This document shows positions 441 to 56,942 of a DNA stretch of 64,000 nucleotides, in pieces. The notes beneath the pieces were generated by a model, which was given only the letters and a program-made list of their open reading frames with translations, was not told the origin of the DNA and searched no databases. The stretch spans positions 67,890,001-67,954,000 of the forward strand of contig OX597825.1 of the NCBI GenBank assembly GCA_951406725.2. Direction: 5' to 3'. The stretch comes from Octopus vulgaris. Lineage: Eukaryota. Made by a program: the position numbers and the translations under genes. The first letter of the stretch is position 1. Each line of letters opens with the position of its first letter.

Positions 441-1472
441 CGTGCTAACGAGTGTGCCAGCTCGCTGCCTTTAATAATAATAATAATAATAATAATAATA
501 GTAATGGTTTCAAATTTTGCCACAAGGGCAGTAATTTTTTAGGGGAGGGGGATGATTCGATTTTATCGACCCCAGTGTTCAACTGGTACTTAATTTATCG
601 ACCCCGAAAGGATGAGAGGCAAAGTCGACCTCGGCGCAATTTGAACTCAGAACGTAGCGGCAGACGAAATACCTATTTCTTTACTGCCCACAAGGGGCTA
701 AACACAGAGGAGACAAACAAGGACAGACAAACGGATTAAGTCGATTATATCGATCCCAGTGCGTAACTGGTACTTATTTAATCGACCCCGAAAGGATGAG
801 AGGCAAAGTCGACCTCGGCGCAATTTGAACTCAGAACGTAGCGGCAGACGAAATACCTATTTCTTTACTGCCCACAAGGGGCTAAAAACAGAGGAGACAA
901 ACAAGGACAGACAAACGGATTAACTCGTTTACATCGACCCCAGTGCGTAACTGGTACTTATTTAATCGACCCCGAAAGGATGAGAGGCAAAGTCGACCTC
1001 GGCGCAATTTGAACTCAGAACGTAGCGGCAGACGAAATACCTATTTCTTTACTACCCACAAGGGGCTAAACACAGAGGGGACAAACAAGGACAAACAAAC
1101 GGATTAAGCCGATTACATCGACCCCAGTGCGTAACTGGCACTTATTTAATCGACCCCGAAAGGATGAAAGGCAAAGTCGACCTCGGCGGAATTTGAACTC
1201 AGAACGCCAAGACGGACGAAATACCGCTAAGCAATTCGCCCGCCGTACTAACGAGTGTGCCAGCTCGCTGCCTTTAATAATAATAATAATGGTTTCAAAT
1301 TTTGCCACGAGGGCAGCAATTTTAGTGTTCAACTGGTACTAATTCTATCGACCCCGAAAAGATGAAAGGCAAAGGCCACCTCGGCGGAATTTGAACTCAG
1401 AACGTTACGACGGACGAAATACGCCAAGCAGTTCGTCCGGCGTGCTAACGATTCTGCCAGCTTACCACCTTA
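441..1472 (-). mobile_element. Nested/tandem array of tRNA-derived SINEs (~184-bp period)
   Basis: GA(C/T)CCCAGTG recurs at ~568, 752, 936, 1120; minus strand has B-box GAGTTCAAATT and core CTTTGCCT(C/T)TCATCCTTTCGGGGTCGAT. Confidence 0.85.
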
Positions 1473-1664
1473 GCTTCGCATTGGTCAGACTAATGTCTGA
1501 CTAATGTCTGACCAATGCAAAGCGCTATAGTGTGGATTAATATAGAGGTCTCCTATCAACGAGCCGCAAAGAAAGAATAAATTTTATAATTTTATTTCTA
1601 TTTCATCAACTTTCGCAGTGTTCAGGGTGTTTTTGTATTATATATCTATTAGTTAAAACAGTGT

Positions 1665-1848
1665 GCTGGCAGAGTCGTTAGCACGCCGGTCAAAATGCTT
1701 AGCGGCACTCCGTCCGTCTTTACGCTCTGAGTTCAAATGCCGCCGAAGTTAACTGCCTTTCGTTCTTTCTCGGTCGATAAAATAGGTACCAGTTGAGCAC
1801 TGGTATATATTTTATTGACTAGAGCCATCCCTCAAAATATCAGGCCTC
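1665..1848 (+). mobile_element. tRNA-derived SINE, same family as 441-1472, diverged
   Basis: GCTGGCAGAGTCGTTAGCACGCCGG...GAGTTCAAATGCCGCCG...TCGGTCGATAAAATAGGTACCAG. Confidence 0.7.
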
Positions 1849-1933
1849 TATTACAGTCAGAATCCATCTGATGGATTCTGACTGTAATTTTTAAAATCCT
1901 AGATTTATCATATTAGGCCACACTAATTCTGCC

Positions 1934-2171
1934 TATGTGGGAAAAACAAATTTAATATGCTTCATTATACACTCGATATGCTGTCGGTAATACGGCCGCG
2001 TTCCAGTCGTTCTCACCTGGGGTTCATATGGCCCTTGGTGGGCCACATAAAATTTTGCTGTTAAAATTAATCTGCAATAAATTTGTTACACTTCTACAAT
2101 ACATGAAATATTTTGACCATTTTTTAATACAATTCCTCATAATATTTCATTATAAAAATATAATATGATCT
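1934..2171. repeat. ~237-bp direct duplication, partner at 3765-4000
   Basis: Near-identical from TATGTGGGAAAAACAAATTTAATATGC to ATAATATGATCT at both loci. Confidence 0.9.
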
Positions 2172-2212
2172 GTTTCTATAGTCGAAAGAATTATATATGT
2201 ATGATGGTGGAT

Positions 2213-2565
2213 ACGCAATGGCCCAGTGGTTAGGGCAGAGGACTCGCGGTTTCGATTCCCAGACCGGGCGTTGTGAGTGTTTATTGAGCGAAAACACCTA
2301 AAGCTCCACGAGCCTCCGGCAGGGGATGGTGGTGATCCCTGCTGTACTCTTTCACAACTTTCTCTTACTTCCTGTTTCTGCTGTACCTGTATTTCAAAGG
2401 GCCGGCCTTGTCACTCTCTGTGTCACGCTGAATATCCCCGAGAACTACGTTAAGGGTACACGTGCCAGTGGAATGCTCAGCCACTTACACGTTAATTTCA
2501 TGAGCAGGCTGTTCCGTTGATTCGGATCAACCGGAACCCTCGTCGTCGTAACCGACGGAGTGCTT
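2213..2565 (+). mobile_element. tRNA-derived SINE (second family; relatives at ~26325-26600 and 55143-55455)
   Basis: A-box TGGCCCAGTGGTTAGG, B-box GGTTTCGATTCCC, shared body GTGTCACGCTGAATATCCCCGAGAACTACGTTAAGG. Confidence 0.75.
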
Positions 2566-3247
2566 CCATACATATGTATGATATATTTATATATTGTAAA
2601 TATAATATTTAAATTATATATTAAACGCTATAAAATGTTTTATGTGTGTATTTCTCTGGTCAAACTGACTTTCATGAAACCGGTCCACGGTGTAAAAAAA
2701 GTTGGGGCTTCTGGATTTATTTACAAAAACAAAAGTCAGCTTCTGTGTTTGCTACTAGAAACAAAAAGATTGCTCTCTATTGATAATAATAAGAGCGTGT
2801 AAAATCATATTCTATGAAATGCGAGAATAGTTGCTACAGGTTTCATCATTTCCCAGGTTTAAAGAAACAAGGGGGAGTACTCAACCAATAATTACCTCCC
2901 CTACTATCATGTCTTTGTTTAGGTTGAAAACACTAATTCCTATCTGCTAAGTTAAAGGATATGTCTCGTTAAGATGTCAAATTAAGATGCCTAATTAAAT
3001 GTACTGTGTAATATTTTCCTTACAATAGAATGTTGTCAGTGTCGGCTGGTTTTTAAACGATTATTTCTTGTTTTTGAATATTTTTCTCAGCAAAATGTTA
3101 AGGTGCCACGAGAAGAGCAATGGAAGCTTTCATGCAAACACCCCCATAAACGCAAATCAGCAATACCAGTCCCTTTCGAGCCAACGAGTAAACCCCGATA
3201 AGTGGTGGTTTGATCTGTTAGATATAGCAACTAAATATCTCTATAGG

Positions 3248-3313
3248 AGAAGAAGAAGAAGAAGAAGAAGAAGAAGAAGAAGAAGAAGAAGAAGAAGAAG
3301 AAGAAGAAGAAGA
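3248..3313 (+). repeat. (GAA)n microsatellite
   Basis: Directly visible. Confidence 0.95.
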
Positions 3314-3834
3314 GTTCAAATTCCGCCTAAGTCGACTTTACCTTTCATCCTTTCGGGATCGACAAAATAAGTATCAGCTGAACACTAGAGCCGATGTAAT
3401 CGAGTTAACCCCTCTTCCGAAAGTGCTGGCCTTTCTATTTTAGATCGTATAAAGACAGCGACCAAGAAAGAATCGTTACCCCACCGGCGAGCTAGCAGAA
3501 TCGTTAGCACGCCGGACAAAATGCGTCTTTAAGTTCTGAGTTCAAAGACCGCTGAGGTCGACTTTGCCTGTCATTCTTTCAGGGCCGATAAAATAAGTGC
3601 CTTGTGTCTATAGTAGAAAGGATTTCTAACATAGGCACAAAGCCACAATTGTTTTTATGGCAAAGGGAATGTCATTCATTAAATTGGCTCTAATATATGA
3701 CTGGTATCATACCGTAATTTCCGACGTGTAACGCGCACGCTCGCATAAAGAAACCCCCTACATTTATGTGGGAAAAACAAATTTAATATGCTTCATTATA
3801 CACTCGGTATGCTGTCGGTAACACGGCCGCGTTC

Positions 3835-22068: not shown

Positions 22069-22553
22069 CTGTGTGTGTGTGACTGTGTGTGTGTGTGTCT
22101 TTGTTTGTGTGTGTGTGTGTGCGTCCACCACTACTTGACAATCGCTGTTGGTGTGTTTACGTCTCCGTAAGCTAGCGGTTCGACAAAAGTGACCGATAGA
22201 ATAAGTACGGGCTTTTAAAAAATTAAGTGCTGGGGTCGATTCGTTTGACTAAATTTCTTCAAGGTGGTTTCCCCAGCTTGGCCGGCCGCAGTTTAATGGC
22301 TGAAACAAGTAAAAGATAAAAAAAGGATATAAGATTAAAAAACAGTAAATATAGGGGTCTGGCCAGCCGCTATCAGTTTGTGCCGATCGCAAAATAGGGA
22401 TAACGGCTGCAAATGTCACTGGCTATCCTCCGCTGCAACGCCATCGCGTTGTTCTGGGATATTTGCCCAACCCCCTGTTTTTTCTCTTTCTTTTTTCTTT
22501 TATTTTTTTTTTCACCCTTTCAAAGTGTTTATTGGTAGATATATATATATTCC

Positions 22554-23040
22554 GAAATATTAAATTTCTAAATACCTCATAGAGATATGTGCGGTGGTGG
22601 AGCGATAGAGTGGTTGTATACTGTCAACTTAACGTGACAGTCCCGTAAGGGAATTACACCACCGCTATTTAGCCCTAGGAAGCATCGACGCTTCCTGTCG
22701 GCCTGGACACAGGAAATGTGTCCTTATATATTTACGAAGGGGAGACAAACACCCCCAACAGCTAGGCCTTACATCTAGAGACATGCAGGTTTCTGGGTCT
22801 TGCCCATCATCATGACTAATGATGGACAAGACTGATGATGGGCAAGACCCAGAAACATGCATGTATCTAGATGCAGGCCTAGCTGTTGGGGGATGTTTGT
22901 CTCCCCCTTCGTAAATATATAAGGACACAGGAAATGTGTCAAGGCCGACAGGAAGCGTCGATGCTTCCTAGGGCTAAATAGCGGTGGTGTAATTCCCTTT
23001 ACGGGACTGTCACGTTAAGTTGACAGTATACAACCACTCA
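22554..23040. mobile_element. Fold-back hammerhead element: 432-bp palindrome (22608-23039) with 11-bp TSD ATATATATTCC
   Basis: ~205-bp arms with few mismatches; TSD at 22543-22553 and 23041-23051. Confidence 0.85.
22829..22868 (+). ncRNA. Type I hammerhead ribozyme motif, intact core
   Basis: aga CTGATGA tggg-caaga-ccca GAAAC atgcat GTA tct; palindromic stem III ACATGCATGT; predicted cut after 22865. Confidence 0.75.
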
Positions 23041-23753
23041 ATATATATTCCTTTTTTTTTTAAATCAATAAATACAGGGCCCTGACCGACTGCAATCAGT
23101 TTGTGCCAGTTTCCATCGAGACATCAAGTTTTCTCGGACCCCGTTCTACTGATTTCTTCCACAAAATAGGGATAACGCCAGCCTGTCGGATAAATAAGCC
23201 TCGCGAAGTGAAGTGACAGTTGCAGCGAGTGTCGTTGGCCTTCCTCCGCGGTAACACCATCGTGGTCATTACTGCGGGGCGCAGCTGAGAACACCATTTG
23301 TTCCAGGGTATGTGGCCCATCGCCTCCTCCCCTCCACCACCATCTTCTGCTGCTTTACCTCCCTCCCCCATTTTTCTTTTCTTTCTTTTCCTTTCTTATC
23401 TGTCTTTTCCCCTGTTTCTTTAGTTTTTATATGTTATAATTTAAATTAAAGTTAATCTCCTTATTTTTCTTTTAAATGCAAAATAGATGAAAAGTAATGT
23501 TTATCGCCACATCAACTGCATCGATAACCAGCTGGAGGAGGATCCTGCTGAGTTAAAAACGGTAGTAACGTCGATTCCGGTGGAACGGCCATATTGATGT
23601 GGGTGACAAATATTACTTCGCAGTATTGTTACTAATTTCATCTCTTACTGAAATTTTCTAACTAGCTACTTGGCAAGATCAGTGACTGGATGTCGCTTAG
23701 TTTTCTATATATTGTGACCTGGAGCGAATTCTTGCTATCTCTAGTGGTTGGGT

Positions 23754-24893
23754 CCAGGAACCGTTAAAGGGTGGACTGTGAATGCCTTGGCTGATGATGC
23801 GCAGACTTGCGTTGAGGCTGAGACATCTCTGGTGCCACTTGGAGGGTGATAAGGTGTGGGGTCCTCTGGCAAGGGAGTTCTTGCTGCGACCGGCCTCTTT
23901 GGAGAGATTTAAACTCGGTTTCATTAAAAGACGTAACCTGACTTTATGGCAGAAGGAGTGCCGTCAGGCACTCTGGCTGATCCACAAGACGGGCAAGGCC
24001 GGCAGTGGGAATACCACCTCAGTGTTCTATAGAGGGCTGGTAGAGGCAAAAAAGGATGATGTCCTAGGAGGGGCTCTGGGGTTCGATGAGAACCAACTTG
24101 CCAACCTGTTCAAAAAAACTTTCAGGCCGGGGTATTTGGATAACTTCCAAAAATCCCTGACCTGGCAGTGCTACAGGAACGCTTTACATGTTCGCGATAA
24201 GTTATCCAGGCACAGTTTGTCAGTGCCACCGACATGTCCAAGATGTGGGCTGGCTAATCAATGAAACTGTCCAGTACAATGTTGGGAGCTATCTAGCTTG
24301 ATAAGTTACGTAGAACACGTGTTGTCGCATCTGGGACGAGTACAGCTGTCGGGTGGATCTATGATAAAGATGATACCGCCAACTGGACTCTCAAAGGAAG
24401 GTAAGGCTTACTTTTACTGTACGGTTGCAGTACTGAAAGAGTGTGTCTGAGGGACTAGAATGGAAGGTTCTGTGGCAGGGTCCTTCATCTCTGGCCCCGG
24501 TTTGCTGTCTTACCTCAGATACCATCTGAAGAGCAAGATGGGGGTTGGAGAGGAAGACCCTGCCACCGAGTGAATATGAGAAACGATGGAAGGATGTGAT
24601 GAGAAAGGTGGGTGTCAGTAACCCAGCTTAATCATTGATGAAAGGAAAAGATAGTTGCTGGGCTTTATAGGCTACCGGGTTTGATCCGTTTGAACTTTTA
24701 TTCATTTTCTTTCTTTGTCTTCGTTTTAGAAAAAGTTCTAGTTAAAGGAAAAATTAATCATTACATAAAATATTTTTTAAGTAAATTTTTAACATAATGC
24801 TCATTCGAACTCATTTAACATTTTGTATTTGTATTTGTTTGTCTTGTAATGTCCTTTTCTATGTACGATCAGTTTGATCATAATAAAGATTTC
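23754..24893 (+). mobile_element. 5'-truncated Tx1/L1-clade LINE with 17-bp TSD
   Basis: zf-RVT-like LDNFQKSLTWQCYRNALHVRDKL...TCPRCG; AATAAA near 24882; TSD ATCTCTAGTGRTTGGGT at 23737-23753 and 24894-24910. Confidence 0.8.
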
Positions 24894-24914
24894 ATCTCTA
24901 GTGATTGGGTATCA

Positions 24915-25165
24915 CCACTGAAGGTTGACACAACTAGCCCGAAACCGTTCGGTCAGGGGATCATGTCGTCTGCTAGAAGATGGTAGGGTCTCCCCTGCTT
25001 GCAAATATATACCGGGTGCAGAATGCATCGATAACCAGCTGGTGGAGGTTCTGCTGGGGTTAAAGGATAGTAACATCGAACAGCCATATCGATGTGGCAA
25101 TACACATTACTTCTCAGTATAGTTACAACTTTCATCTCTTTTTGACATTTTCTGACTAGCTACTT
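24915..25165 (+). ncRNA. Degenerate hammerhead plus downstream structured domain (partial upstream copy at 23515-23672)
   Basis: CTGAAG...GAAAC cgttcg GTC, followed by a hairpin series homologous to those at 27816 and 31571. Confidence 0.55.
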
Positions 25166-27811
25166 TGCTTGTTTTAAAATAGATGACTACGACTATTTGG
25201 TAAAGAAAGAAAGATGACCATCCCGAAATATAACGATGACCATTACTTTTCCGTAAACCAAGATGAAAGCGCGTGGCTTATGAGTTACGATGTTAGGTCC
25301 ACGCAGGACCGGATTTAGACCTAATGAAGCTCCTAAGCCAATAGGCTTTGAGGTACACTACGATTTTGTTTTCGTAACTTTCACCTGTTTATATGTAAAC
25401 AATAATAACATTGTAAATAATCATAATACAAAGAACATTTATAATTTCATATCAATTTTGTCTTTCCTCGAAAAAAATTTGCGCATTCCATAACTTTAAT
25501 GGTTGCCTTCTTTATCTGTTTGGATAATACATTGCTGTTAACTGCCCTCTTAATATATCAGGGTATAGGGACATCGCTTGGTCCTGCCCGACATTTGAAA
25601 CCAAATCTACCCGCTTGTTGCTTGTCAAAACGAGCGGGAAATCCTCTCCACACCAGATAATTGATGGGGAAATATTCGATGTCCTAGGACCTGCGTTGGT
25701 CAAAGAAAGGTCAGTCCTTTGTTTAGGGTTTGACCTACATTACTGACCATATGGGGACATTTCTTATCTCTTCCTCTTTTGCGTCAGCCATGACCAAGCA
25801 CAGCACTTTCCCTTCGCTGTTCGCTCGACATACGAAGAGGAGCTTTCGCCCGCAAGAAAGGTGATGCCACCTTTATCCTTTCTTCCTTTCTAATCAGCAC
25901 CCTGCATTCCTTGCTCTTTCACTCTCTACTGGCAGACAAACAACTTCTACACTATCAACTACTAACCAGCGAGTCAACCTTTTTGCCATTATCACTAGAA
26001 TAAGTCCTGGGGGTCGATTTGCTCGGCTAAAAGGCGGTGCTCCAGCATGGCCACAGTCAAACGACTGAAACAAATAAAAATAAATAAAAGAATAGAAAAA
26101 AGTATAAAATGAAAGTAAACATCAGAAGACGAGGTTTGAAACAAAGTGAAAGAAATACGTGAGATAATATATATCCACAGAAAGAGACAGACAGACAGAC
26201 AGAGAGTGTGGTAAATATATAAAGAGAGAGGTTGGTGGTGACAGAGAGTGAGAGTGTTGTTGCTCTGAAAGTTGAGTATATATATCATATATATATGCAT
26301 ATATATCATATATATATGCATATATGCGCAATGGCCCCGTGGTCAGGGCAGCGGACTAGCGGTCGCAAGATCGCGGTTTCGAATCCCAGACTGGGCGTTG
26401 TGAGGGTTTATTGAGCGAAAACACCTAAAGCTCCACGTGGCTCCGGCAGGGGATGGTGGCGATCCCTGCTGTACTCTTTCGCCACACCTAAATGGCCTGC
26501 TCGCTTAGCCAGCGGGGTGGCGTCATTTGAAGGCTAAAACAATGCGAAGCGCATTGTGACCAGCGATAGCCTGGTCGGTCACGGTGATCACGGTGATATG
26601 CATATATGCATATATGTGCATGCATGCGTGGATACATACACATGCATGTAGAGAGAGAAGGGAGGGAAGAATCGATGGTGATGACGACCTGTTGGAAAAT
26701 AAGGTATTTCTGATTACGAATGAGCTTCAGCCGTTAAGTAGACAGGATTAATGAACGACAGGCTAAGGTAAATAACTCTTGCTGGTAAAAAAATTAGTTA
26801 GCATCAATTCTCTCCCTTATTACGTGTTGCAATCGTTATTTCCCTTTAGCATTTTTACAAAAACGATTTGAGAGAGGGAAGATACAGTCGCTTTAATTAA
26901 ACCCTAGGCTATGATTGGTTCGTTTTTATGATATTTTTCCCTGGCAAGGTGGCTTTGAAGTTAAATGTAAATCGAAATAACAAAATTCCTCGAAGCATTT
27001 ATTCGGGCGCTTACTGATTCTGCCACCTTCCATTTTTATTAATTGAAATAAGATACATGTTATATAATGATTTCAAGTTTTGACACAAAGGGAATGGAGC
27101 AAGTCGATTACATCGACCCCAGTGTTTAACTGGTACTTATTTTATCGGCTCTGGAAGGATGAAGGGCAAAATCGGCCACGGAATTTAAACTCAGACTCCG
27201 GCGAAATTTGAACTCAGATCGTGAAGACGGACGAAATTTTAAATCAGTTATTACCTGACAATATATGACGGATTTTTACTGCTTCGCTCACAACTTTCTT
27301 TTTTTTTTTTTTTTAGGTCCAATTATTTTTTTAATTTGATGTACTGATGAAGTTTTGCGTATTTTTGCCATATATCAATATATAAAAATTTAATAGCTTT
27401 TAAAATTGTAAATTTTGAGTAATTTTAGCCAATCGAAAGCCACATACATATTGGTGCCTTTTTCCATAATAATAAGCCAAAATTTTCCCTTAATTTTTTT
27501 TAAATGTCAAAAACTATGAGCAAAACAGAAAAGTTCTGGCATGACTTGTATAAAATTTATATATAATGGTATTAAACATACTCGTTTAAATAGCTTCGAC
27601 AAACTCTTCTTTAAGTTAAGTTACCAACAGTTTCCTGCAGATTAATTGTGCTCACAGTTCCAAATTGAAGAGTAATAGTGCCCAATTATTTTTTCTGTTA
27701 CATTTTTCCCCCTAGATACAACATTACAAGTGAGGTAAGAACAACCGTGTGGAAAAAGCAAATAGTATTTTGCGATCTAAATCACTTCTCATCCCTAGCC
27801 AGTGATTATCC

Positions 27812-28021
27812 CATGCTGATGATGGGTTGCTACCCAGAAACCCAGATGCATGTGTATCATGTAAGGCTACAGATGGGAACAATGATTTCCATTCGCAAAT
27901 ACTGATTGAACACAGACATTGTGTCGTTAGCCAGCTGGAGGAGATGTTTTCCTGGGACTATAAACTACAGTAGCATGGTCCCATATGGGTCAGCCACATT
28001 TAGGTGGCAAATATACTTCAT
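27812..28021 (+). ncRNA. Hammerhead (degenerate stem III) plus structured domain
   Basis: CTGATGA tgggt-tgct-accca GAAAC; downstream ~170 nt aligns with the 31571 copy. Confidence 0.6.
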
Positions 28022-28190
28022 GATACATATATATATATATATATATATACAATAACATATTCATATTTATATATGTAATACTGTATTCATATAGCAAATC
28101 CAAACAAACGAAGAACAAACACAAACAACAACATGACAATGTGGTACATGTAAAGTATTAGCAGACACTCAGAAAAGGAAAGAAAGGTAG

Positions 28191-28223
28191 TTTAACATTT
28201 CGAGCAGACCTCTTCTTCAGAAA
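28191..28223 (-). ncRNA. Minimal hammerhead-like motif (family of 4376)
   Basis: Minus strand: ttt CTGAAGA agaggtctgctc GAAAT GTT aaa. Confidence 0.55.
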
Positions 28224-28284
28224 CAGAGGAAAGTCCAATAGAAAAGGAAGATGGACGAAGAAAATTGCCAACGGTTGACATGTG

Positions 28285-28331
<47 letters not shown>

Positions 28332-28355
28332 AATTGTATATTTATACTATATATA

Positions 28356-29608
28356 CAGGGTGCAATGAGTAAATTGTTGCCATTTTATATTTTTATCTTC
28401 ACGCATGTACATTGTTTATTTTTGATTTTGTCGACTACACAGTATGGTAGGGTCAGTTGGGCACCATCTGTGAGTAAAACAGCACCGTGATGCAATTCAC
28501 TCTGTCAGAAATTTGGAAACAACATGCTGTACTGCTTGACATTTGTGTCAGAAGCTCCAATACAAACATTTCAGAGTGTTTGGGTGTCTATCTAAGGACA
28601 GTGCAGAGGATTCAGAAAGAGATGTATGAGTCTAATAGTGATTACAAAGGTACAACAGCTTGGAAAACTCATTCTGATCGTTCTGATAAGAAAAGAACTC
28701 ATGAATTTGTTGGTGAGATCCAAGTCATGATTGACAATGATCCCGCCAAGTCAATCAGGTCCATCGCCAGGGACATGGGCGTGACTGAGTTTCTTATTAG
28801 GCAGGTAGTGCATGAAGACTTTCAGTATTCCTCATACAAGATGAGAAAGGGGCCAAATTTTATTCCAAGCCATCAAGGACAAGGGGAAAGACCATGCTAC
28901 GAAACTTTTGAACAAACTCAAGCATCCCCACCAACCAAACATGCTTTGGTTTTTCTCAGACAAGAAGAATTTCTGCCAATATTGGATGGTGAACACAGAG
29001 TAACGGCTGGCTTGCCATGTCCCCAAAACATGTACCAAGAGTGATAAAAATCAAACATCCAGTCAACATCATGGTGTTTGGAGTGATCGCTGATGGTGAC
29101 ATGATGCCTCCATTCATCTTCCCACACAGCCTCAAACTCAATACGGAGGCCTAAATCAAGTGCTGCCCTGGGTCAAGAGGGTGGCTGCTGGAAGATTCTT
29201 TGTCTGGTAACAGGACTCCACACCATGCCACAAAATTTCTGTGACGACATCACCTCTAACATCTGGCCACCTAACTCCACACACCTTAACCCCCTTGATT
29301 ATTACTTGTGGGGCACAGTTGAGCGAGAGACCAACAAAACTCCTTGTAACACCAAAGATAAACTGAAGGCAAGGATTATGGCAGCATTCACCAACTTAAA
29401 CAAGGAGATCATCCAAAAGAGTTGTAGGAGATTCCAAAGTCGTCTGGAGGCTGTGGTTAGAGCCAATGGTGATTTTATTGAATAAATTTACTCTTTAGCA
29501 TTTCAAGTTATTTTTATGTAATTGTGGTAAATATTTCTGTTAAAATGAGATGTCATTGTTATTTTCATTCATGGGTAATTTAAATGACAGTTTATTCACT
29601 GCACCCTG
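28356..29608 (+). mobile_element. Near full-length degenerate DD37D (maT-type) Tc1/mariner transposon
   Basis: TIRs CAGGGTGCAATGAGTAAATTG / CAGTTTATTCACTGCACCCTG; HTH SIRSIARDMGV; WPPNSTHLNPLDYYLWG; frameshifts and stops. Confidence 0.9.
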
Positions 29609-29630
29609 TGTATAAATGTATGTATGTATG

Positions 29631-29678
<48 letters not shown>

Positions 29679-29734
29679 GAGAGAGAAAGAGAAAAGGAGA
29701 GGGTGAGAGAGAGACACATATTTGTAAATTTATA

Positions 29735-29772
<38 letters not shown>

Positions 29773-29862
29773 TATATATATATATATATATATATTATAC
29801 AATAGACTAGTTATACACACATATATAAAAATATACACATACACAATAGTATATATGTGAGT

Positions 29863-29906
<44 letters not shown>

Positions 29907-30003
29907 GTGTGTGAGTGTGTGTGTATATATACATATATATATTACAGAATAGCTTAGTTCTACATGCATATATAAGAATATGTATATATACATGTACACA
30001 ATA

Positions 30004-30047
<44 letters not shown>

Positions 30048-30060
30048 CAATAATATATTC

Positions 30061-30103
<43 letters not shown>

Positions 30104-31567
30104 TCAACAGTATATTCATATTATATATATATATACTTATACAAATCTGTTTAAGCGCAGATACACACACACACACACACACACACACAATAGTATATAA
30201 TCCAAGGAGAAAGAACTATGCTGATTTCGCCGCTGCACCAAGTCTTGAAATTCAAACAATGATATGAGAGGATAATTCACAAGTTTCAGTAATTTATCCT
30301 CTCCAGCTTTATGTTGTTATAATAATATCATTATATAATCAATAAAACATTATTGATTTCTCTTATAATTATTGGTTTTGTTACTTTGGCATGGAGCTAA
30401 CATTATCTAGTAAATGATTTAACGCAATTAGATCAATTAACATAATTCCAATACATGCTACCAGTTTATTTTTATTGAACATGAAGGAATGGAACCTGTG
30501 TAGAGCAACAACGTTTGATCTTGGATCTTAGCAATAGGAAAATTACATTAGCCATTTGTGTATTGTACTTGATGTATATATACCATTGACAGGCAAGTTG
30601 CTATGGTTTTCGTCTGAGATAAAACCTCTTTTTTTTACTCTTTTACTTGTTTCAGTCGTTTGACTGTGGCCATGCTGGAGCACCACCTTTAGTTGAGTGA
30701 GCAAATCGAGCCCAGGACTTATTCTTTGTCAGCCCAGTACTTATTCTATCGGTCTCTTTTGCCGAACCGCTAAGTGACGGGGGACATAAACACACCAGCA
30801 TCGGTTGTCAAGTAATGCTAGGGGGACAAACACAGACGCACAAACATACACGCACACATATATATATATATACATATATACGACAGGCTTCTTTCAGTTT
30901 CCGTCTACCAAATCCACTCACAAGGCTTTGGTCGGCCCGAGGCTATAGTAGAAGACACTTGCCCAAGGTGCCACGCAGTGGGACTGAACCCGGAACCATG
31001 TGGTTGGTAAGTAAGCTACTTACCACATAGCCTTACCACGCAGCCACTCATTTTTTTTACTCTTTTACTTGTTTCAGTCATTTGACTGTGGCCATGCTGG
31101 AGCACCACCTTTAGTCGAATCAAATCGACCCCAGGACTTATTCTTTGTAAGCCTAGTACTTATTCTATCGGTCTCTTTTGCCGAACCGCTAAGTTAAGTG
31201 TGAACTCAATAGAAATGTATTATCAGTAAGATGATATAGTGGGTAAATGAGTAATTAAAATGGTTCAATTCACTTATTTAAATTCCTTCACTTTAATTTT
31301 AAGCCATTTTAAAACCATTTTATCTTACTCATTTACCTACTATATCATCTTACTGATAATACATTTCTATTGAGTTCAGACTTAACCTGTACAGAACCAT
31401 ACTGATATAATTCAATATCTATTTTATAACACAATAAAGACATTCTAAAGTCATTAGCATGTAGAAAATATATGAAATGTGTAACATATTTCCTTTAATT
31501 TAACTCATTAATACCAATAAATTACTTATTAACTATAAATTTATAATAAATCTCTGAACGAGGTATG

Positions 31568-31774
31568 ACGCTGATGACGGGTCATGACCCAGAAACTGCA
31601 GTCCGTGCGTATCACTTAGGTTGATGAGGGAAGGATGACCTCCCTTTGCAAATACCGATAGGGCACAGAAAATGTGTCAATAGCCAGCTGGAGACGATGT
31701 TCTCCTGGGGCTACAAGCTACAGTAACACTCACCCTTAGTGGTTAGCCATATTGAGATGGCAAATATACCTCAC
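31568..31774 (+). ncRNA. Canonical type I hammerhead plus structured domain
   Basis: acg CTGATGA c-gggtca-tgaccc-a GAAAC tgca GTC cgt; all core nucleotides intact; predicted cut after 31603. Confidence 0.8.
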
Positions 31775-32770
31775 ATATAAATTTATATTTGATTTATTTT
31801 TATATAAATATGAAATTATTTCTATATTCTATATTCTCTGTCCCTATATTGTATAAAATACTAAAATTATTCTGATTCTTTGAAAAAACTCTCTAAAATA
31901 TACCTATTTATTTCAAATCACAATTAGGATTATGGCTGTTAAATGGTTAAGTACTATAAGTTTTTACTCTCCCAACCTCATCAGCTTTAGCCTACTAATT
32001 TTAGGTGAAATATATTCCACCGAACCATATGGGTTCTGCTTCAAAGGAATCTTGATTTATGGTTCTGCCACTTAAACTGTCTTTTTCTTGATCTATAAAA
32101 GATAGATTCTTGTTTTTTTTCACTAGACCTGATAGAATAGTCATAAACCCCCTCCCTCAATAGTAAATCTAAATAGCAAAGTAAAATCAATGATAAGCAG
32201 TGTCTCCATGAAAAAATATTAATTACTACTATTACTCTTTTACTCTTTTATTTGTTTCAGTCATTTGACTGTGGCTGTGCTGGAGCACCGCCTTTAGTCG
32301 AGCAAATCAACCCCAGGACTTATTCTTTGTAAGCCTAGTACTTATTCTATCGGTCTCTTTTTGCCGAACTGTTAAGTTACAGGGATGTAAACACACCAGC
32401 ATTGGTTGTCAAGTGATGATGGGGGGACAAACACAGACATACAAACATATACACACACATACACATATATATATATATATATACATATATACGACGGGCT
32501 TCTTTCAGTTTCCGTCTACCAAATCCACTCACAAGGCTTTTGGTCAGCCCGAGGCTATAGTAGAAGACACTTGCCCAAGGTGCCACGCAGTGGGACTGAA
32601 CCAGGAGCCATGTGGTTCGTAAGCAAGCTACTTACCACACAGCCACTCCTACTATGTTCTTGTTGATGAAACTAGTTTCTCTGTCTACCTACATACCCTA
32701 TTTGTGATGTTGGTAAATGGAATAACTATAAAAATGAATCTTTTCAATTTAACTAAATTCTATATTTTTA

Positions 32771-43182: not shown

Positions 43183-43326
43183 TTTTATTAAAACTGAAGC
43201 CGAGAGTTTGTCTCACAACTCAAGTTTCATGCCACAATGATCTTCAGGCGAGTTTTGCCTGAAGATCACAGTGACAGGAAACTCAAGTTGCATGACAAAC
43301 TCTTACTTTCAGCTTTAACAATAAAA
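43183..43326. ncRNA. Palindrome holding two divergent hammerhead motifs
   Basis: (+) tgc CTGAAGA tcacagtgacag GAAAC tcaa GTT gca; (-) cgc CTGAAGA tcattgtggcat GAAAC ttga GTT gtg. Confidence 0.65.
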
Positions 43327-56324: not shown

Positions 56325-56942
56325 AATTTTTTTTATTTTTGAAACAGTGAAGCTTGAAACAGATGTAGAGAAATTTGAAAGATAGCTTTGGTTCAATGGT
56401 AAAACACCTGTCATGTTTACAGGAGATGTGAGTTCATGTCTCACAGGCAGCCTTCAACATTTTCTATTCAAGGGTTTTTTTTTTTTAGCCCGATATTTGC
56501 ACATTATCATTATAGCTTCATCTCTTTTGAGATTCACTGTTTCAAAAACGGAATAGTTTCACATTCTCTTGACAGTTTCTATATTCTTATGACATCAACA
56601 ATGTGTGTGTGTCTGTGTGTGTTTGCATTATACAATACAAATTTTCAGTATGCAGTGTAAATTTATTCAGTACTCCATTGTATAACATGCTGTATAATAC
56701 AGAAGTTATCTACATACCAGTTGTACTATATTGAATTTAGTATGTTTGTGTATACTTAAGGAAGGAATGGAATGACCAAATGTAACCTAATGTATGTTTA
56801 GTCAGTTTCTTATAAAGACATCCATAAGTATTGAGAAAATGTGAAGAATAACATAGAATGGGAAGTTACAAGAAAATATTTAAAAGACATCATTCTTACA
56901 TACACACACACACACACATATATATTATATATACATACACAC

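Follow-up and report, generated by a model that had tools for sequence, protein, structure and literature searches.

The window, by which we mean the whole 64-kb stretch of octopus DNA that was analysed, holds six copies of a hammerhead repeat (Table 1). A preliminary description had counted five. All of these are real: four hammerhead cores start, as it said, at 22832, 24918, 27816 and 31571, and its partial copy at 23517 is a fragment lacking the core. It had overlooked an inverted subfamily-A copy at 22551–22812. Copies E and D are successive units of a single insertion, interrupted by a LINE with a 17-nt duplication. None of the window copies has an intact hammerhead: copies A and B keep little of the stem I 5′ arm, copy D combines a core substitution with a damaged stem I, and the inverted copy is truncated within the hammerhead core.

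Table 1. Repeat copies, the interrupting LINE and associated features, in window positions.
Feature	Position	Strand	Details
Inverted subfamily-A copy	22551..22812	-	Unit positions 326 to 228; 5′ partner of copy A; ends at (TA)n
Copy A, 5′-truncated	22829..23042	+	Core 22832-22855; predicted cleavage position after 22865; ends at 3′ zone 1
28-nt inverted fragment adjoining copy E	23488-23515		
Copy E	23517..23753	+	Downstream portion of first unit of subfamily-D partial tandem; unit positions 73-306
snRNA-type promoter motif ATCAGTG of the E-D insertion	23678..23684	+	59 nt upstream of LINE target site
Left copy of 17-nt target-site duplication	23737..23753	+	16/17 identical to 24894-24910
5′-truncated L1/Tx1-type LINE (ORF2 3′ end and 3′ UTR)	23754..24893	+	At fixed site of the repeat
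Copy D	24894..25173	+	Starts with right duplication copy; core 24918-24944, one substitution; predicted cleavage position after 24954; ends at 3′ zone 2
Copy C	27750..28020	+	Unit positions 260 to 172; core 27816-27840; cleavage triplet mutated, AUG; ends at 3′ zone 1 before (TA)n
24-nt inverted fragment of subfamily-B 3′ end	31543..31566	-	At 5′ junction of copy B
Copy B	31568..31776	+	Core 31571-31595; predicted cleavage position after 31603; hairpin domain from about 31657; ends at 3′ zone 1

The window copies are truncated members of a dispersed repeat of about 350 nt with thousands of relatives in the genome, a genome search yielding 1,151–3,408 first-look candidates per subfamily query. 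Eight subfamily consensuses have units of 348–361 nt, and real copies of the eight are 47–90% identical. A type I hammerhead (core, stems I–III and cleavage triplet) is found in all eight consensuses, with covariation at 6/6 pairs of stem I and 3/3 of stem II; the J consensus has C at core position 4, the G consensus has a variant core, and stem III is a single pair in families F and G. Isolated hammerhead fragments gave no folding signal above shuffles (z −1.5 to 0.7). The unit is non-coding, with no ORF and no LTR, PBS or PPT, and its length falls in the retrozyme range of 150–450 nt. Two or three cores (at most three) lie one unit apart in 11 of 160 loci, the tandem arrangement of non-LTR retrozymes; partial tandems occur in 36 and long tandem arrays in none of the 160. 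Intact dimers exist, for example, in types A, B and H. The repeat is likely a non-LTR retrozyme, that is, a non-autonomous Penelope-like element. Rfam, searched at gathering score and at E up to 5, gave no match on the copies to a hammerhead or to any other family. The element does belong to a known class, and its families may already sit in Dfam or Repbase as unclassified or Penelope repeats. A search of metagenomes with the promoter and core pattern gave chance matches only, the 152-position covariance model of the domain matching 0 of 80 loci. Contigs from runs that may be of RNA cover the repeat and not unique flank; they cannot reveal start, cleavage, strand or circle and do not enter the evidence.

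Folded independently, the eight consensuses gave the same fold (z −3.4 to −11; 25 shuffles each). In the predicted read-through RNA an imperfect rod of about 65 bp, the most stable part, prolongs hammerhead stem I and is joined by a distal multibranch domain. Among 24 real copies from the eight subfamilies, 86% of cells are paired with 263 double changes, against 64% and 66 for a tree-based null, the structure having been derived from the same families used for this first test; 27 copies outside model building are 86.7% paired, with 73 double changes versus 27.6 shuffled. Double changes are absent from hairpin H6 and number one each in H4 and H5, the distal rod is only 70% paired, and pair types are no more numerous than in shuffles. 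The helices keep their order, length and spacing at about 50% identity, and a few unpaired bases are invariant within the conserved multibranch fold. Selection on RNA structure is supported.

The module that had been drawn from the window copies was partly correct. Its GACACA-type hairpin, its TAGCC/TAACC stem with the enclosed hairpin and its terminal GCCA-type hairpin are all present and covary across subfamilies, and its central claim, that pairing is kept despite divergence, holds across the eight subfamilies against the tree-based null. The structure is selected as proposed, yet it is no free-standing module, being the middle of a 350-nt fold. The purine/pyrimidine hairpin forms only in RNA shortened like the window copies (0.8–6.6 expected pairs per family in the truncated fold versus 0 in 8/8 full units), the proposed outer stem appears in the truncated fold of families A and F only and in none of the full folds, and the G(C/T)AAATA “junction” supplies one strand to the long rod; the actual partner of these three segments is a distal strand missing from the window copies. 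A long-range helix of 8 bp, which closes the terminal hairpin, had escaped notice because copies A, B and C stop short of its second strand.

Past the cleavage site, 228 of 280 fragments end in two 3′ zones (medians 166–177 and 222–234 nt), placing the end sites about 173 and 226 nt after it. The zones are 49–58 nt apart in every family and lie at homologous structural positions in all eight: the first is the end of the domain and the second is about 50–58 nt beyond. (TA) comes next in 81 of these 228 fragments, versus 5 of the 52 ending elsewhere. The cleavage junction is crossed by 222 of the 280, a count inflated by choosing loci as best matches to queries covering core and domain; 77 fragments are longer than one unit, and 6 start at the cleavage site. 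Of 160 loci, 66 carry an inverted fragment at the 5′ end and 0 at the 3′ end. Partial tandems, 5′ truncation, an inverted 5′ partner, two internal 3′ ends and AT-rich or microsatellite targets are Penelope-like traits, and this insertion anatomy, together with the hammerhead unit, bears out the Penelope/retrozyme relation first suggested from the window.

The RT of anole Poseidon has two internal start sites (PMC11167929), which the two 3′ ends resemble; the earlier idea of an RT-recognition domain gains by this analogy, and by the same analogy the two fixed ends support a role of the hairpin domain as an RT platform. Autonomous RT and GIY-YIG elements with intact 781-aa frames occur in the genome and likewise end at (TA)n. 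No terminal repeat in common with such an element was found among 32 GIY-YIG loci (best 150 of 6,136 candidates); the terminal repeats there are unrelated to our repeat, and one family has, by eye, a minimal hammerhead. Penelope remnants near the repeat (L080, L084, L233, L358, L371) were rejected as partners, their positions being inconsistent; those of L080, L358 and L371 are parted from it by (TA)n. A SECIS or Naiad link (after Craig et al. 2021) was also dropped: the repeat has no ORF and bears a hammerhead.

The unit carries a PSE-like motif that is also found at −57 of the genome's own U1, U2, U4 and U5 genes (at −56 to −58 in 12/12, 1/1, 5/6 and 7/8 genes, respectively). A matrix trained on the snRNA genes alone has the same site as best match in 8/8 repeat families. 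Spacing from motif to LINE insertion site (about 57–59 nt) holds in families B, C, D, H and J; A, F and G have no clear ATC 58–60 nt past the motif. Judged by its sequence, the repeat likely carries a borrowed snRNA promoter. The motif sits within a hairpin in which 3/5 pairs covary, so its conservation is possibly at the RNA level; genomic 5′ ends do not pile up sharply at the predicted +1. Despite an AT-rich box near −30, there is no support for a U6-type promoter, since true U6 genes are without the motif.

The LINE seen in the window recurs at this site, about 59 nt downstream of the promoter motif. The repeat follows the LINE 3′ end in 49 of 83 flanks, 37 of them at a single modal offset per LINE subfamily, over a background of 4 incidental matches in 139 kb. 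On the 5′ side the repeat extends as far as the same site; 14 of 19 junction rows have a duplication of 13–20 nt, and LINEs truncated at many lengths share these two-sided flanks. Flanks in one target amount to 17/30, 20/30 and 12/23, above the 20% that PMC4494074 takes as the mark of target specificity, and come with a fixed site and a duplication. ORF1 has a zinc knuckle and ORF2 an APE endonuclease, RT and zf-RVT; the closest solved structures are of LINE-1 ORF2, and the label Tx1 comes from architecture and behaviour. The LINE also inserts at +1 of U2. No target type consisting of one site in a ribozyme retroelement was found in the literature searched.

Our main reading, to which we assign a probability of about 0.72, is that all six copies are truncated representatives of a dispersed hammerhead repeat of ~350 nt whose predicted whole-unit fold covaries, that this repeat is likely a non-autonomous Penelope-like element (non-LTR retrozyme), and that its hairpin domain likely serves a borrowed Penelope RT as the platform on which it docks and starts. 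Partial tandem copying sets the snRNA-type motif before the next unit, at a spacing that would place the transcription start about 60 nt upstream of the cleavage site. The read-through RNA is predicted to fold into the rod and multibranch domain that covary. Self-cleavage could then free a monomer whose ends, held by the rod, might be ligated to a circle, as in the retrozymes of coral, mussel and axolotl. A Penelope RT/endonuclease, having nicked AT-rich DNA, would begin copying at one of the two internal sites at the domain end; copying would run back via the hammerhead into the preceding unit, which would give the 1.x-unit, 5′-truncated and often 5′-inverted copies whose footprints we see. 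The L1/Tx1-type LINE, inserting at the predicted start site with its duplication of about 20 nt, may gain a promoter thereby. A fuller version is tentative, and we would expect it to fail in some part: the element would be an snRNA-gene mimic, transcribed from a captured host promoter that partial tandem copying regenerates and processed by the hammerhead to a circle, with the multibranch domain as a cis docking and template-start element for the telomerase-related Penelope RT kept in at least eight lineages; the LINE would be a hyperparasite at the start site, taking over the promoter, its sublineages tracking the retrozyme subfamilies and spilling to U2.

The hairpin domain of the same element might instead be a generic scaffold for a compact, nuclease-resistant circular RNA, RT starts being set otherwise. 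Known retrozyme circles are predicted to be highly self-paired (PMC7229834), and the rod dominates the stability of the fold; such a scaffold, however, would not keep helices in order, length and spacing through so much divergence, nor put the 3′ zones at homologous positions in eight families, and we think it unlikely. The preliminary description also offered a second ribozyme or a circularisation element. A ribozyme could explain a conserved multibranch fold with a few invariant unpaired bases, but the lack of an Rfam match to E 5, of a pseudoknot or known core that we could recognise, and of any surplus of 5′ ends within the domain leaves it with hardly any credence. Circularisation fits the long rod uniting the monomer ends, not the hairpin domain. 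An alternative to which we give close to an even chance is that the template is uncleaved linear read-through RNA rather than a circle, the hammerhead acting later or merely trimming. Ribozyme mutants of anole Poseidon leave in vitro insertion unaffected, uncleaved RNA being its main template (PMC11167929); octopus arrays are short; and with the one-pair stem III of F and G and the variant core of G, cleavage may be slow. Against it, three of the longest fragments reach 30–152 nt past the predicted start of the previous unit, for which a single pass from the start site needs a template jump, and the rod uniting the monomer ends is conserved.

Mobilisation of the repeat by its associated LINE, as partner or by 3′ transduction, could account for repeat sequence after so many LINE 3′ ends. 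This is largely refuted by the two-sided flanks with duplications mostly of 13–20 nt, and the ends of the repeat (two internal sites, (TA)n, 5′ inversions) are unlike LINE ends; we consider it very improbable. How the LINE finds its site is a separate matter. Tethering to the snRNA promoter complex, in place of endonuclease sequence preference, would suit the constant position relative to the motif in repeat subfamilies of differing target sequence and at U2 +1. It is nonetheless improbable: LINE sublineages follow target subfamilies; six off-target sites with duplication (L243, L109, L119, L120, L281, L284) have no motif at −57; the copies in U2 form a single young lineage, its rows identical, that falls among copies targeting the B type, to whose target the 5′ end of U2 is similar; and the 83 flanks include no recognisable insertion at U1, U4 or U5.

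Penelope RT is related to telomerase RT. The link of animal retrozymes to Penelope elements rests on co-occurrence and terminal-repeat similarity. For the question of how such RNAs come to be recognised and copied, eight diverged subfamilies provide a ready comparative structure on which insertion ends place the likely RT starts, so that cis-requirements of a telomerase-related RT can be tested directly with a non-coding RNA of 350 nt. The promoter motif gives an explanation of how transcription of such an element could come about, and with it the newt precedent gains a molluscan counterpart.

Metazoan non-LTR retrozymes are described from coral, Mytilus and axolotl (Cervera and de la Pena 2020, PMC7229834) and in a vertebrate survey (10.64898/2026.07.22.740005). 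The octopus repeat shares with them a non-coding unit of some 350 nt with GC below 50%, a single type I hammerhead in each unit, tandems or partial tandems, a highly paired predicted monomer and co-occurring Penelope-like elements. It differs in being mostly dispersed 1.x-unit copies rather than arrays, in having at least eight subfamilies with one covariation-supported architecture where those sources, in the portions consulted, give single predicted folds, and in insertion ends mapped to two internal sites; cephalopods are absent from the main text of the 2020 paper. With Anolis Poseidon (Frangieh et al. 2024, PMC11167929) and the elements of Craig et al. 2021 it has in common a hammerhead upstream of two internal RT starts, an optional tail between the starts, AT-rich targets, partial tandems and an inverted 5′-truncated partner. 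Unlike Penelope-like elements it has no ORF, its tail is 49–58 nt rather than 30–40, its likely start sites are about 173 and 226 nt past the predicted cut, and no sequence-related autonomous element accompanies it among the 32 GIY-YIG loci (best 150 of 6,136 candidates).

Newt satellite 2, a hammerhead repeat of about 330 nt reportedly transcribed from an internal snRNA-type promoter (as cited in PMC2220036), is matched by the predicted promoter of the octopus repeat, which belongs to another phylum, has an invertebrate-specific motif common to the genome's U1, U2, U4 and U5, and is dispersed, not satellite-like. Target-specific Tx1-clade LINEs include Tx1L in Tx1D, Tx1-Mar in Mariner-N4 and Keno in U2 (PMC4494074). 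The octopus LINE resembles them in its two-ORF APE-RT-zf architecture, its fixed site in a multicopy target and its duplication of about 20 nt, and both sets of targets include another transposon and U2; it is set apart by a target that is a hammerhead retroelement at a predicted transcription start, by U2 insertions at +1, and by sublineages that follow target subfamilies.

The hammerhead copies of the window belong to a dispersed repeat that we classify, at a probability of about 0.85, as a non-LTR retrozyme, likely a non-autonomous Penelope-like element. Each window copy falls in its own subfamily, for which a first look gave 1,271–3,408 candidates in the 2.8-Gb assembly (227 contigs), and four further subfamilies (F, G, H and J) were found in the flanks and then sampled. 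The eight consensus units measure 348–361 nt, with 40–46% GC and 47–90% identity. In flank comparison, the stretch preceding the core proved to be the unit's own end, giving partial tandems. An exact pattern joining the snRNA-type promoter motif to the core matched 3,092 times (246 for the reversed control); since the first 30 loci held 13 clear members, one weak member and three other hammerhead-like repeats, the figure serves as a rough ceiling for that pattern, not as a copy number. Two loci, L380 and L366, matched by chance; by inspection they carry an extended pol-like ORF, of 1,038 aa in L380, from an LTR-type retroelement. More distant hammerhead repeat families occur at L279, L283 and L287, at L358 and L360 (only E 0.1 with the domain model), and at L364.

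A preliminary description had listed five copies of a hammerhead followed by a multi-hairpin domain, and was largely real. The four cores lie where it placed them; copy E is a relative of D by self-comparison, as a fragment without core, and an inverted A that had been missed was added. In the window, no copy retains an intact ribozyme. Comparison of the copies with Rfam was empty, both at the gathering score and with the E limit raised to 5. Copies A, B and C end at zone 1, one of two internal 3′-end sites, which is why the domain was drawn to end there; this truncation also led to a partly misdrawn structure.

Features of the window (G000:C12:67,890,001–67,954,000) and the U2 cluster on another contig
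Feature	Location	Strand	Remarks
Hammerhead cores (starts)	22832, 24918, 27816, 31571		
Inverted A	22551–22812		
AT-rich stretch at zone 2 (example)	22551–22580	minus	unit positions ~215–240
LINE fragment between E and D			1.14 kb; 17-nt duplication
Decayed Tc1/mariner-like element	28355–29611		inverted ends (inspection); no Pfam match at E 0.001
Inverted repeat	43220–43290	both	hammerhead-core-like strings; unmatched by repeat models
Weak tRNA match	56385–56448		33.8 bits; probably a SINE head
U2 gene cluster	G000:C3:20.79–20.83 Mb		full-length LINEs at U2 +1; loci L266–L271, L295–L297

Each consensus was folded on its own, as the unit between successive cleavage sites, with 25 shuffles apiece, and all eight gave one predicted architecture (z −3.4 to −11). 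A predicted rod of ~65 imperfect pairs lengthens hammerhead stem I and brings both ends together, and is capped by a multibranch loop of H2 (the GACACA hairpin), H3 (the TAGCC stem with its inner hairpin), the 8-bp long-range helix P4 enclosing H4 and H5 (the terminal hairpin previously noted), and H6–H8. The first hairpin and outer stem of the preliminary description appear only in folds cut to window-copy length and in none of the eight full-unit folds; most families could form the first hairpin, perhaps as a folding intermediate.

The proposed covariation was confirmed with 24 real copies, the three best-preserved full units per family. RNAalifold predicted 40 pairs, 31 of them changed on both sides. 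For 74 pairs taken from independent single-sequence folds, though of the same families as the test set, 85.8% of cells were paired, with 263 double changes, against 64.0 ± 2.5% (maximum 70.5) and 66 ± 15 (maximum 121) in 120 tree simulations of unconstrained evolution with matched column divergence. The 34 domain pairs alone gave 89.3% and 83 double changes (null 75.6 ± 3.4% and 13 ± 6). Column shuffles reached the observed value in 0/500 cases for four of five measures; the pair-type count was not above them. Slid partners were 37–46% paired. The domain model recovers all six window copies and subfamilies outside its training set, and in 27 sequences outside the model, in an alignment fitted to it, pairing was 86.7%, with 73 double changes versus 27.6 shuffled. 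Double changes number none in H6 and one each in H4 and H5; for the distal rod, a sequence-only alignment gives 70% pairing.

The LINE between E and D has full-length relatives of 4.9–5.7 kb, with a zinc-knuckle ORF1 and an APE-RT-zf-RVT ORF2. A LINE relative is named from Argonauta hians. Queries with the 3′ ends of three LINE subfamilies found the repeat after the LINE in 17/30, 20/30 and 12/23 cases, at a single offset in 12, 15 and 10 (background 4 hits in 139 kb); the BLAST count for the first two was 16 and 21. LINEs insert at the ATC that comes next to the promoter motif on its 3′ side. The repeat also carries on 5′ of the LINE, and of the 19 junction rows from long loci, 14 show duplications, mostly 13–20 nt. 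Insertion is almost certainly site-specific. Sublineages prefer D/J-, B- or C-type repeats; among the 50 rows with enough sequence, in a tree rooted for drawing only, kin share labels, so this pattern is clustering and not proof of co-evolution. Tandem LINEs at a regenerated target site were seen at L246, L268, L300 and L301, and the L279/L283/L287 group is also struck. Three copies (L117, L129, L130) have in common another 3′ flank, which is not a ribozyme sequence and is unmatched in Rfam; it is either a duplication or a further target repeat.

Tx1-clade LINEs aimed at other transposons or U2 are known (portions of PMC4494074). Here four further LINE copies run into a complete U2, starting at its position 1, and one more into the first U2 bases; the U2 promoter lies upstream of the LINE at U2-inserted copies, which form one young lineage. 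LINEs of the U2 cluster begin with ~14 nt of repeat-type target sequence, which suggests a donor residing in the repeat and an RNA with its start at the target site.

In L271, the native U2 gene carries ATCAGTG 59 nt upstream of +1, and a motif of this class was present between −56 and −58 in 12/12 U1, 5/6 U4 and 7/8 U5 genes fetched; it is absent from U6 genes with a common upstream region. A matrix from snRNA genes only has its best hit 116–124 nt before the cleavage site in all eight families (scores 5.8–15.1; 6 is reached at 0.18% of window positions). ATC or ACC lies 58–60 nt past the motif in B, C, D, H and J, less clearly in A, F and G. Newt satellite 2 is reported to have an snRNA-type promoter, as cited in PMC2220036. 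Against a promoter, no peak of genomic 5′ ends was found at the predicted +1, and the motif doubles as part of H8. An active snRNA-type promoter is probable. The AT-rich stretch at zone 2 loosely resembles, by eye, sequence 3′ of U1/U2 genes and is a possible 3′ box.

In the openly searchable literature, outside which lie subscription papers, Repbase, Dfam and some supplements that may be relevant, we came across neither a cephalopod retrozyme nor a retrozyme fold based on covariation, and no LINE aimed at a retrozyme. Word searches of PMC13282606, a paper on Octopus vulgaris repeats, and of its single supplement gave no mention of ribozyme or hammerhead; Penelope-like elements are put there at 6.83% of the genome. 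Portions of further retrozyme and related sources were consulted (10.64898/2026.07.22.740005, PMC7229834, PMC6155905, PMC2770079).

Autonomous Penelope-like elements are present in the genome, and none of 32 GIY-YIG loci examined shares the terminal repeat of the hammerhead element. A young autonomous family (L166–L169, L177) encodes RT+GIY-YIG in an intact frame of 781 aa and has a second, separate frame of 330–480 aa upstream of it; no standard hammerhead was recognised in its terminal repeat.

Of 315 hits, 280 fragments reached 80 nt and were analysed; their loci were best matches to core-plus-domain queries, a choice that favours junction-crossing copies but does not create two sharp end zones. 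Two zones hold 228 of the 280 ends, with medians at unit positions 166–177 and 222–234, spaced 49–58 nt apart in every family, and (TA) follows 81/228 zone-ending fragments versus 5/52 others. The cleavage junction is crossed by 222 fragments, 77 are longer than one unit and six start at the cleavage site. Among 160 loci, an inverted fragment lies at the 5′ end in 66 and at the 3′ end in none; 36 are partial tandems, and in 11 two or three cores are spaced by one unit. For a Penelope RT, Frangieh et al. (2024, PMC11167929) show initiation at two internal sites 3′ of the hammerhead, the stretch between being the Penelope tail, AT-rich targets, mainly uncleaved RNA as template, and a requirement of the protein for RNA 3′ of the ribozyme; Craig et al. 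(2021) describe inverted 5′ partners as well as partial tandems for Penelope-like elements. In the present repeat, a circle and a linear read-through RNA are both candidate templates. By analogy, a Penelope enzyme is likely the mobiliser and the hairpin domain, by a slight preference, its putative RT platform, given how closely the repeat matches Penelope-like elements in its two internal ends, AT-rich targets, partial tandems and inverted 5′ partners.
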